Source: Eledone cirrhosa
Taxonomy: Eukaryota
DNA length: 64,000 bases
Assembly (NCBI GenBank): GCA_964016885.1
Contig: OZ024742.1
Coordinates: forward strand, 363,692,001-363,756,000
Direction of reading: 5' to 3'
This document shows positions 39,863 to 43,057 of this stretch, in pieces. The translations under genes were made by a program, and so were the position numbers. The notes under the pieces are model-generated. The model did not search any database. It had not been told where the DNA came from and was given only the letters and a program-made list of their open reading frames with translations. Each line of letters begins with the position of its first letter. Position 1 is the first letter of the stretch.

Positions 39863-41528
39863 ATATATATATATATATATATATTTATATATATATATAT
39901 ATATATATATATATATTTATATATATATATATATATATATATATATATATATATATATATATATATATATATATATATATATATATATATATATATATAT
40001 ATTAGGTATCATTCTTTCCTCTGACATCTAAACAGCGACACAATATTTCATATTATAGGGAAGATTGGCATCAATTGCAAAGGTCACAGTGTCGACCAAC
40101 AGCTTTGATTTGTACAACATGGAGAAATGAAAAGGTAAGTTTAGACTATGTCATTTAAGTTTAGAAGTAGAATAGCCTTAACTAAATGCAGTGGTGTATT
40201 TTATCACATGTATTACACATCTTGATAATTAACCTTGCTAAATATTATCTATAAACCATTGTTAATTTACAATAACAGACTGACAAAATATATGATTAAG
40301 TATTTCAGTAACACAATAGTGTTAATATTTGGAGAGAGTTGTTATAAAAGATATGTTTGTCGACTGTAGATATTAAGTTCTTTACGTTTTGATTTCATAT
40401 CCAACTGTCATCAACATTGTATCATCCTTCCTGGTTCGATAAAATAATGTACCAATGAAATACTGGAGTTGATGCAATTGTCTCACTGCTGATATTCAGC
40501 TTAATATTATAAAGTATATTTACTGCTATATATTGTGCCATCCGGTTGGATAAGAAAGAAATGGAAAAACTGCATAATAGATTAAATACTGCAATGTGTC
40601 TACTAAGTAATGGAAATTTCGCTAATCTGACATTTTATATATTATGTTAAATAATCTTGCATAAAATGGCGTAAAAAGCAGAAGAAAATGAAAGCTTGGC
40701 TGGAGTAACACAAGACTTAATTAAAACTCTCATCATATCATATTTAAAATTATTCAACAAAACTATTCAGTTTAATAAATTCCAATGAATTTTCCAATTT
40801 AACATTTTGTTAAATGCTATGAACTCGACGTTTAAGCATCACTATGACCGGGATTTCCATCAACGAACTACACAAAACTCTTTACGCTCTGAAATTCAAT
40901 TAAAATTTTCTTTCAAGAACAGGCTAATCCATGTTCAAGGATGGACCAAAATCAGTTCCAGGTGGCCAAGTCATTAATTGCATTTCAACACTCTTCCACA
41001 ATAATTTACACAATCTCTCTGTTTCTCTGTCAATTTATATTCATCCACACGCGTATAAACAGACACCAGCCCACACACATACATAGTCACTTCAGAATAC
41101 GTACATAGATACGCATATATATATATATATATATATGTGTGTGTGTATACACACACACAGACATATATATATATATATATATATATATATATATATATAT
41201 ATATATATATATATATATATATATATATATATATATAAAAACAAATAACGAAACGAAATTAAATTTCGTTTCGCTTCTAACTCACTTTTGTATGACTGAC
41301 GCTTAAACAATTAAGTTAAAGTGTACATCTACATATGTATACGGAAGTACTAGTATGCATATAAATACACACATGTATACATATGTACATGTACTGAGTT
41401 TTTCACTAGACACTTTACAGTGAGTGTCCAGCTAGTCTGTATGTAACCAAACAGACGAACCGGGTTTTAAAGTCATACGAGTTTTCAAGGAAACACACTT
41501 CCTCCATTCTCCAGAGAGCCAGACAGGA

Positions 41529-41571
41529 ATATTGGACTAGTTTCGATGTTATTACATCTCATCAGCAATAT
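41529..41571 (-). ncRNA. Minimal type-I hammerhead ribozyme (family B)
   Basis: ATATTG-CTGATGA-GATGT aata ACATC-GAAA-CTAG-TC-CAATAT; canonical core, GUC site. Confidence 0.9.
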
Positions 41572-42214
41572 ATACCCATCTTCCGGCTTCTCTAGAGAAT
41601 TGTAAAAGCACATATCGTTATATGCTTTTTCTATGAAAATTAGTAGTGGGCAGACTAATTTGCATAGAACGTGAGTCATTGTACGCACCGGTTCAGCGGA
41701 AACGATAAAAACAAATAACGAAACGAAATTAAATTTCGTTTCGCTTCTAACTCACTTTTGTATAACATCGAAACTAGTCCAATATTCCTGTCTGGCTCTC
41801 TGGAGAATGGAGGAAGTGTGTTTCCTTGAAAACTCGTATGACTTTAAAACCCGGTTCGTCTGTTTGGTTACATACAGACTAGCTGGACACTCACTGTAAA
41901 GTGTCTAGTGAAAAACTCAGTACATGTACATATGTATACATGTGTGTATTTATATGCATACTAGTACTTCCGTATACATATGTAGATGTACACTTTAACT
42001 TAATTGTTTAAGCGTCAGTCATACAAAAGTGAGTTAGAAGCGAAACGAAATTTAATTTCGTTTCGTTATTTATTTTTATCGTTTCTGCTGAACCGGTGCG
42101 TACAATGACTCACGTTCTATGCAAATTAGTCTGCCCACTACTAATTTTCATAGAAAAAGCATATAACGATATGTGCTTTTACAATTCTCTAGAGAAGCCG
42201 GAAGATGGGTATAC

Positions 42215-42253
42215 ATTGCTGATGAGATGTAATAACATCGAAACTAGTCCAAT
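42215..42253 (+). ncRNA. Minimal type-I hammerhead ribozyme (family B)
   Basis: ATTG-CTGATGA-GATGT aata ACATC-GAAA-CTAG-TC-CAAT; GUC site after 42249; 3' half repeated at 41763-41783. Confidence 0.9.
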
Positions 42254-43057
42254 ATTCCTGTCTGGCTCTCTGGAGAATGGAGGAAGTGTGTTTCCTTGAA
42301 AACTCGTATGACTTTAAAACCCGGTTCGTCTGTTTGGTTACATACAGACTAGCTGGACACTCACTGTAAAGTGTCTAGTGAAAAACTCAGTACATGTACA
42401 TATGTATACATGTGTGTATTTATATGCATACTAGTACTTCCGTATACATATGTAGATGTACACTTTAACTTAATTGTTTATATATATATATATATATATA
42501 TATATATATATATATATATATATATATATATATATATATATATATATATATATATATATATATATATATATATATACACATATATATATATATATACATA
42601 TATATATAAATGAGAGGTATAGAGATTGTTTTAGCGAGAAGCTAATAGTATTCTATAACATATATGCGACTATAACGTCAAGATGGGAAAAGTAGTTAAC
42701 GTAAGATTTAGGAAAAATAATTCAAACTCATCTCAAAAGAGAATCAGGATACAAATTCATCCACAGAATTTAGTGAAATCCAGGGAAAAATCAATAGACC
42801 TTTAACTCATGTATATATACATATATATATATATATACATATATATATATATAAAAGTCTATCTCTCACTTTCTCTTTCTCTCTCTTCTTTCTTTCTTCT
42901 TTCCTTTTTTTCTGTCTTATATTTCTTTTTCCCTTTTCTCCTTCTTCTTTCCTTTTCTTCTATTTTCCTATATTTTTCTTACTCTTATATTTCCGCCATA
43001 TGTAGACTGGAAACTTTCTTGTTTACAAGTGTTTTTAGGCCTCATATCATGTTACCT

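Follow-up and report, generated by a model that had tools for sequence, protein, structure and literature searches.

The closest described systems are the non-LTR retrozymes of metazoans, reported from coral, mussel and axolotl, which like the element analysed here are AT-rich, non-coding tandem units with one type I hammerhead each (PMC7229834). They further resemble it in their strong self-pairing, numerous dispersed copies and coexisting Penelope-like elements (PMC7229834; 10.64898/2026.07.22.740005). Penelope elements are named in these two papers as likely mobilisers, on the basis of co-occurrence and repeat similarity. Copying of the RNA circle by Penelope-like enzymes is put forward in PMC7229834 as a proposal, and the mechanism is said in 10.64898/2026.07.22.740005 to be one that "remains to be elucidated".

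Penelope-like elements and their non-autonomous derivatives form the second related group. As described in 10.1101/2021.04.23.441226 and PMC11167929, they share with the present element partial tandems, an inverted 5′-truncated arm, a one-ended tail and TA/AT-rich targets, and according to PMC4209133 also a hammerhead with a short palindromic stem III. The tail is given as 30–40 bp and usually one-ended, with (TA)n targets in Naiads, and the origin of the inverted arms and of the one-sided tail is described as open (10.1101/2021.04.23.441226). In contrast to the Penelope-like elements of these descriptions, the retrozyme here has no ORF, a tail of about 70 nt and arms that are multimers of whole units. 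For the anole Penelope element in vitro, both strands of the target are cut and extended, and two internal RNA start sites bound the tail, with no difference between the strands in the account given (PMC11167929).

The element studied here is a 470-nt unit from the window, the 64,000-nt stretch of DNA that was analysed. It is almost certainly a non-LTR retrozyme, a member of a class already known, and its family appears to add insertion-level evidence for the Penelope route and for a one-unit RNA template. The DNA itself shows fixed paired outer ends, random inner ends and arms of up to several units with common variants. We think it likely that such a two-armed insertion arises when a Penelope-like reverse transcriptase (RT) and endonuclease acts on a (TA)n tract and copies, from each side of the break, one and the same 470-nt RNA, which is probably circular. 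For the in vitro Penelope system that already exists, a protein-free substrate of 470 nt with two mapped start sites would also offer a simple reagent.

The 470-nt unit and its family

The locus consists of two back-to-back arms inside a (TA)n tract (Table 1). An exact 470-nt period on both strands had been proposed in the initial annotation, and this proved correct: in the plus arm, 41762–42010 and 42232–42480 are identical at 249 of 249 positions, and in the minus arm the 59 nt at 41235–41293 are repeated at a lag of 470. The predicted cleavage sites are the GUC triplets whose last bases are 41779 and 42249. No ORF of at least 120 aa in the ORF list of the window overlaps the element, and target-site duplications are unreadable at (TA)n insertion sites. 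The tail is among the least variable stretches of the unit.

Table 1 Features of the insertion in the window. Unit position 1 is the base after GUC.
Feature	Position	Strand	Basis or remark
Left (TA)n-rich target tract	41115–41237	.	Tandem Repeats Finder
Left arm, unit 242–470 then 1–300	41235–41763	−	Outer end is the family "long" end (300)
Complete type I hammerhead of left arm, core 41565–41535	41529–41571	−	Perfect 6-bp stem I; predicted cut between 41535 and 41534
U6-like element of left arm	41617–41666	−	Predicted unit passes the hammerhead and reaches the T5 run 41241–41237
Inner junction of arms	41762–41763	.	Read from sequence; inner ends 242 and 453; 2-nt overlap (AT) compatible with both
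Right arm, unit 453–470, 1–470, 1–231	41762–42480	+	Outer end is the family "short" end (231)
Hammerhead 3′ half without CUGAUGA core	41762–41785	+	GUC ends 41779
One full 470-nt unit, cut site to cut site (defines unit numbering)	41780–42249	+	Predicted circular RNA sequence
Tail between the two priming sites (unit 227–300)	42006–42079	+	11–13 bp hairpin; T5 run 42073–42077
U6-like upstream element: 12-mer TATGCAAATTAG (42118–42129) and TATA-like box (42162–42167)	42118–42167	+	Inferred transcription start near 42192–42195
Complete type I hammerhead of right arm, core 42219–42249	42213–42255	+	Stem I 42213–42218 with 42250–42255; CUGAUGA 42219–42225; stem II 5 bp; GAAA; palindromic stem III 2 bp; GUC; predicted cut after 42249
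Right (TA)n target tract	42479–42608	.	

The predicted ribozyme is of type I, with a stem I of 6 bp, a stem II of 5 bp and a stem III of 2 bp within the palindrome ACUAGU, and it has the CUGANGA...GAAA core, the NUH site and the type I order of stems I–III. Its identity as a hammerhead with a dimer-type stem III, claimed at the outset, is backed by covariation and by the description in PMC4209133 of metazoan type I motifs, where the short stem III is the usual form and requires a second copy. In a MAFFT alignment of eight sequences from three sister families, 8 of 13 pairs are altered on both sides, and 92% of the alignment cells are paired, against 24–44% for slid controls; the eight sequences are mutually related, and shuffle counts are therefore not probabilities. 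Two sister families, from the window and from fetched loci, retain the hammerhead core despite altered stems. Rfam did not detect the motif at gathering thresholds. In 99 sampled loci the core is intact in 253 of 261 hammerhead copies, and the cleavage triplet is GUC in 172, GUU in 83, GUA in 4 and GUG in 2.

The monomer had been described as strongly self-complementary. All four pairs of segments named are present in the sequence, and the predicted fold is far more stable than those of shuffles (−161.7 kcal/mol as a linear RNA, z −9.8). Folding in circular mode, which had been suggested as a check, gives −156.9 against −98.5 ± 6.7 for 40 shuffles (z −8.7), with z −5.5 for the antisense circle. 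The highly self-paired monomer is a retrozyme character. In the consensus fold of seven close subfamily units, 3 of 150 pairs show a two-sided change. In the predicted circle stem II forms and stems I and III are nearly unpaired (pair probability at most 0.07 and 0, respectively), so that the ribozyme is predicted to be off.

For the copy in the window, the claim of a monomer bounded by canonical hammerheads goes too far, since neither strand has two complete ones; that the upstream plus-strand hammerhead is only a 3′ half was noted correctly. In the right-arm hammerhead one pair of stem I is lost through a private T>C at 42214. With one complete ribozyme per strand, and this change weakening stem I, the copy would probably be poor at releasing a 470-nt unit, and in its plus transcript the downstream core is the sole one able to act. 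The copy probably derives from circles and is not itself a source of them. Many other copies in the family have at least two consecutive complete hammerheads, which the survey in 10.64898/2026.07.22.740005 takes as its rule for activity and which the window copy lacks. Counting against our main explanation, the same survey reports that eight of nine Xenopus retrozyme dimers were uncut in vitro.

Searches covered the host genome (3.0 Gb, 1,796 contigs). The unit gave 985 first-look candidates, and among the 37 that were scored the full-length matches were mostly 96–99% identical; a second subfamily is about 88% identical. Exact patterns were found for 9,201 hammerheads, 1,840 long-end/TA junctions and 176 forward short-end junctions, the 344 reverse matches of the last pattern including overlaps. 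The family thus has the many dispersed copies and the recent mobility of a retrozyme, together with short tandem units of less than 50% GC, one type I hammerhead per unit, and neither LTR-type anatomy nor a long ORF. At 463–470 nt the unit is longer than the 170–400 nt RNAs of PMC7229834 and within the survey range of 51–972 bp (10.64898/2026.07.22.740005). The initial interpretation as a candidate circular RNA is partly supported; it missed the thousands of dispersed insertions of a known class, the fixed outer ends with their pairing of short and long, which is a Penelope signature, and the U6-like element in each unit.

No two-armed insertions whose fixed ends are paired, no marks of editing and no U6-like element were seen in the retrozyme descriptions consulted (PMC7229834; 10.64898/2026.07.22.740005). 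A literature search, with subscription papers and preprint supplements outside its reach, returned no paper dealing with retrozymes from this lineage, with edit marks in arrays of retrozymes, or with insertion-level evidence for the Penelope route and a one-unit template. Compared over part of its length, the unit is also present in contigs from three other sequencing runs (three coded organism labels), one contig closing on the 470 period; these matches establish presence only. One locus (L144, G000:C1:5738322-5752448) has an arm of 31 consecutive units opposite an arm shorter than one unit. In another array (L024/L028) full units alternate with 432-nt deleted units, which suggests a dimeric template or local duplication.

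Outer ends and the probable Penelope machinery

Arm ends had been described in the initial annotation as arbitrary. This is borne out for the inner ends; the outer ends do not behave in this way, those of the window copy (231 at 42480 and 300 at 41235) being fixed family-wide, at unit 226–231 (short) or about 300 (long). All 60 sampled insertions with both outer ends at fixed sites have one short and one long end. The short-end sample comprised 60 of the 62 sites on contig 1. Here the far end was inverted at the long site in 43 (two of them a duplicated pair) and inverted at the short site in none; the remainder were one inverted long-end stub, three other inverted ends, nine that were not inverted and four beyond the fetched stretch. 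For the long-end sample, 40 of the first 47 sites were taken (the seven excluded being far ends of loci already sampled) and 39 were usable, with the far end inverted at the short site in 17 and inverted at the long site in none. Four short stubs, four other ends, ten that were not inverted and four beyond the fetched stretch make up the rest. Two exceptions count against our main explanation: among 26 distinct insertions L020 and L021 are short/short, each with one end outside the TA tract.

The strict pairing implies that in vivo each side of the break has its own start site, different from that of the other side. The targets are TA/AT-rich, both in a sample chosen on its TA junction and in the 26-insertion sample, which was not so chosen. 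An inverted truncated arm and a tail on one end only are found in 60 of 60 insertions, with the two exceptions in the 26-insertion set. Judged by this anatomy, Penelope machinery very probably mobilises the element.

Elements with RT and GIY-YIG domains are plentiful in the genome (10,597 first-look candidates, 150 scored). None of the 50 GIY-YIG loci fetched from these candidates proved to be an autonomous partner with sequence in common with the unit, in a comparison of low power for the tail. Three apparent links to a partner were rejected. A tail match in L064, L070 and L075 sits inside the coding region and is ascribed to chance. An 86% identical copy in L071 is a separate small insertion adjoining a Penelope element. 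A resemblance of the 3′ end of the L031 cluster is not significant (best z 2.9 of 44 regions), in a weak test that gave only 3.2 for a true sister family.

It is worth adding that six loci (L060, L064, L065, L070, L074 and L075) belong to a young RT and GIY-YIG family whose members are 91–98% identical and carry a hammerhead-like motif; the family has short and long 3′ ends of its own, followed by simple repeats. In the window, ORF fragments at 304–780, 43712–45131 and 59027–59410 resemble, by eye, pieces of Penelope RT or GIY-YIG domains.

The RNA template

The 164 inner ends are spread evenly over the unit, successive tenths holding 18, 19, 17, 18, 16, 20, 12, 20, 11 and 13. Of 258 cut-site junctions 255 are intact, the other three being two substitutions and one 1-nt loss. 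These figures bear on a model in which the template is a cut linear monomer and a telomerase-like RT jumps repeatedly from its 5′ end to its 3′ end, giving tandem cDNA without a covalent circle. Such jumping would explain repeated edit marks (see below) as well as a circle does, and the predicted fold holds the two unit ends adjacent. A pile-up of inner ends at the cut site, sought as the sign of a linear cut template, is however absent (0 of 164 at positions 1–5), and the nearly uniform junctions also speak against jumping, which we regard as quite improbable.

In the 60 two-armed insertions the long arm runs beyond the short site in 57, and both arms cross the cut site in 39. Twin priming of the L1 type on one linear RNA predicts a block of the long arm at the short site; only 4 of the 60 long arms end near it (222–250), and this candidate was rejected.

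Divergence between units was measured in the 46 loci with enough overlap. It is 0.84% within an arm (594 of 71,092 sites) and 1.0% between arms (642 of 64,368), and other loci lie at a median of 2.6%. For the closest other locus (a minimum taken over many) the median is 0.54%, and its divergence is often below the between-arm median of 0.84%; this counts against the reading that both arms come from one template.

More specific information comes from rare insertion-wide variants, here those that every covering unit of an insertion carries and that occur in no more than two of 99 loci. Of 55 such variants 28 are A>G on the sense strand and 3 are T>C (p 7e-7, with double counting of variants that two loci share). 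Strictly private variants give 8 A>G of 19 against 2 T>C, which is borderline (p 0.056), and the 274 single-unit variants include 21 A>G and 44 T>C. An A>G bias on the sense strand is the expected trace of adenosine deamination in RNA, and marks of this strand specificity need an RNA stage. The bias therefore largely excludes a satellite or fold-back element whose spread takes place at the DNA level, through recombination in (TA)n tracts, and whose hammerhead is a relic of a Penelope terminal repeat. Recombination has been proposed as a route for retrozyme arrays (10.64898/2026.07.22.740005), and large uniform arrays of the unit do occur in the genome; the fixed short and long ends, the random inner ends and the thousands of dispersed sites are further points against it, and it seems hardly credible as the origin of this family.

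The clearest edit marks are those of L170, where a stretch of 18 nt in a predicted hairpin has five A>G changes, present in each of the four covering units and in both arms. An exact search of the genome finds this five-change pattern four times, every time at the same insertion; a parent of the pattern may be absent from the assembly or may have mutated further. In the window copy all three covering units have G at unit position 30, where 61 of the 62 other loci in the subfamily have A. Exact repetition of edit marks points to a one-unit template: it is what repeated copying of one unit would leave, and it agrees with a circle of edited RNA. The simplest template of this kind is a covalent circle, with precise jumping on a linear unit as the alternative, and we are reasonably confident that the template was circular. 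At the level of the family, the circular template gains independent, if indirect, support from DNA.

The same observations weigh on the remaining alternative, a Penelope-type insertion from an uncut linear multimer transcribed from a tandem source array. In this case the hammerhead would be dispensable, uniformity would come from local duplication or conversion of DNA, and the long end would be a true RNA 3′ end at a T5 run. Even inner ends and intact junctions fit it equally well. Uncut RNA is the main in vitro substrate of the anole element, for which hammerhead cutting is unnecessary for insertion in vitro (PMC11167929); the latter result counts against our main explanation. Local amplification also happens, as seen in the one run of 31 units and in some long arrays whose variants are common to only part of their units. 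An uncut multimer does not account readily for the L170 pattern, identical in four units and both arms and with no other carrier in the genome, nor for long arms that fail to stop near the short site, nor for a ribozyme core conserved across families that are strongly diverged elsewhere. We consider it unlikely, and prefer copying of a single, probably circular, unit.

The U6-like upstream element

Each unit also contains a 12-mer, TATGCAAAT(T/G)AG, followed by a TATA-like box, which is kept in all three families about 105–130 nt before the cut site. The degenerate 12-mer occurs seven times in the window against 0.15 expected, and six of the seven are in these retrozyme families. In the host genome, three distinct upstream regions among the five viewed for U6 have it at −76 to −78, as does the one RNase MRP gene; a one-base variant lies at −77 in one of six U6atac loci, and the eight U1 and three U2 loci viewed lack it upstream. 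The host U6, U6atac and RNase MRP genes (L181–L185, L211 and L217) have an octamer-like 12-mer near −77, where a proximal element is expected, and the host U1 and U2 genes have a different motif, TCAGT, near −57.

The order of a U6-type promoter, host upstream element and then TATA box, is therefore present, and its spacing differs from that of the host genes: 42–43 nt from 12-mer to TATA (the distance for family A was counted by hand) against 46–48. When 90-nt U6 upstream regions were aligned whole to the unit, only one of six U6 loci reached p 0.01; the case for a promoter rests on the 12-mer and its position. Three T4–T5 runs per unit count against a promoter for polymerase III, as they should hinder the read-through needed for a full unit. 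Depletion of T runs in the predicted transcript is not significant (matched by 16% of shuffles) and was dropped as proof of polymerase III. On balance we favour a putative U6-type promoter in each unit.

Placed by the spacing of the host genes, transcription would start near unit 413–416, and the first T5 run beyond it, at 294–298, is the long end. This coincidence suits an uncut multimer ending there. In three loci (L170, L171 and L152) clusters of A>G changes destroy the 12-mer in every unit; if the promoter is real, these copies are transcriptionally dead.

Newt satellite 2 and the hammerhead SINE-like repeats of schistosomes have a comparable arrangement, in which transcription of the next unit in a hammerhead tandem is driven from a promoter inside the repeat (cited in PMC2220036 and PMC6765202); here the promoter is putative. 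The newt promoter is given there as snRNA-type and transcribed by polymerase II, and that of the schistosome repeats as an internal polymerase III promoter. In contrast to both, as those papers present them, the element here matches the upstream element of host U6, U6atac and RNase MRP genes, and not that of U1 and U2.

On this basis we propose the following route. The U6-like element within each unit would transcribe the next unit of a tandem source copy. Two hammerheads are predicted to pair through the ACUAGU palindrome and to excise the unit, and a host ligase would close the circle, as shown for the mussel and axolotl retrozymes. The circle is expected to adopt its branched fold, with the ribozyme off, and occasionally to undergo A-to-I editing. 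A GIY-YIG endonuclease would then nick a (TA)n tract on both strands; one of the DNA ends would prime at about 298–300 and the other at 226–231, and both polymerases would travel round the circle, displacing each other. Finally, the two cDNAs would be joined at random positions. Copying round a circle would restore the upstream promoter, which is otherwise lost in ordinary retrotransposition.

Taken as a whole, the genome may hold a direct record of how a Penelope enzyme related to telomerase travels round a single edited RNA circle, starting at two dedicated sites that each serve one side of the break, and of how the circle allows a U6-type promoter to outlast retrotransposition. The element would then be a self-transcribing, viroid-like RNA parasite of Penelope elements whose complete life cycle can be read from DNA. 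We offer this full picture tentatively, our doubts slightly outweighing our confidence.

The window contains relatives of the element. A sister retrozyme family (19839–20636 and 38970–39542, with further copies at L071:7579–9001, L072:1900–2524 and L055:2661–3100) has a unit of about 480–510 nt, a GUA site and an internal TA run, and shares the U6-like 12-mer and the inverted-arm anatomy. A third sister family, at about 55880–56440, is an inverted pair with hammerheads containing an ACAUGU palindrome, and both of its strands carry the 12-mer TATGCAAATGAG. Hammerhead-like motifs whose sequence is unrelated also lie at 50524/50702, 51108/51264 and 43066, two of them as inverted pairs. One U6-like 12-mer, at 26770–26781, has no hammerhead in the next 140 nt.

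Elsewhere in the window, an Rfam tRNA match (35325–35395, minus strand, 41.3 bits) may be the head of a SINE, and three consecutive ORFs at 9037–12232 resemble the pol region of an LTR retrotransposon, with protease, RT, RNase H and integrase motifs recognised by eye.
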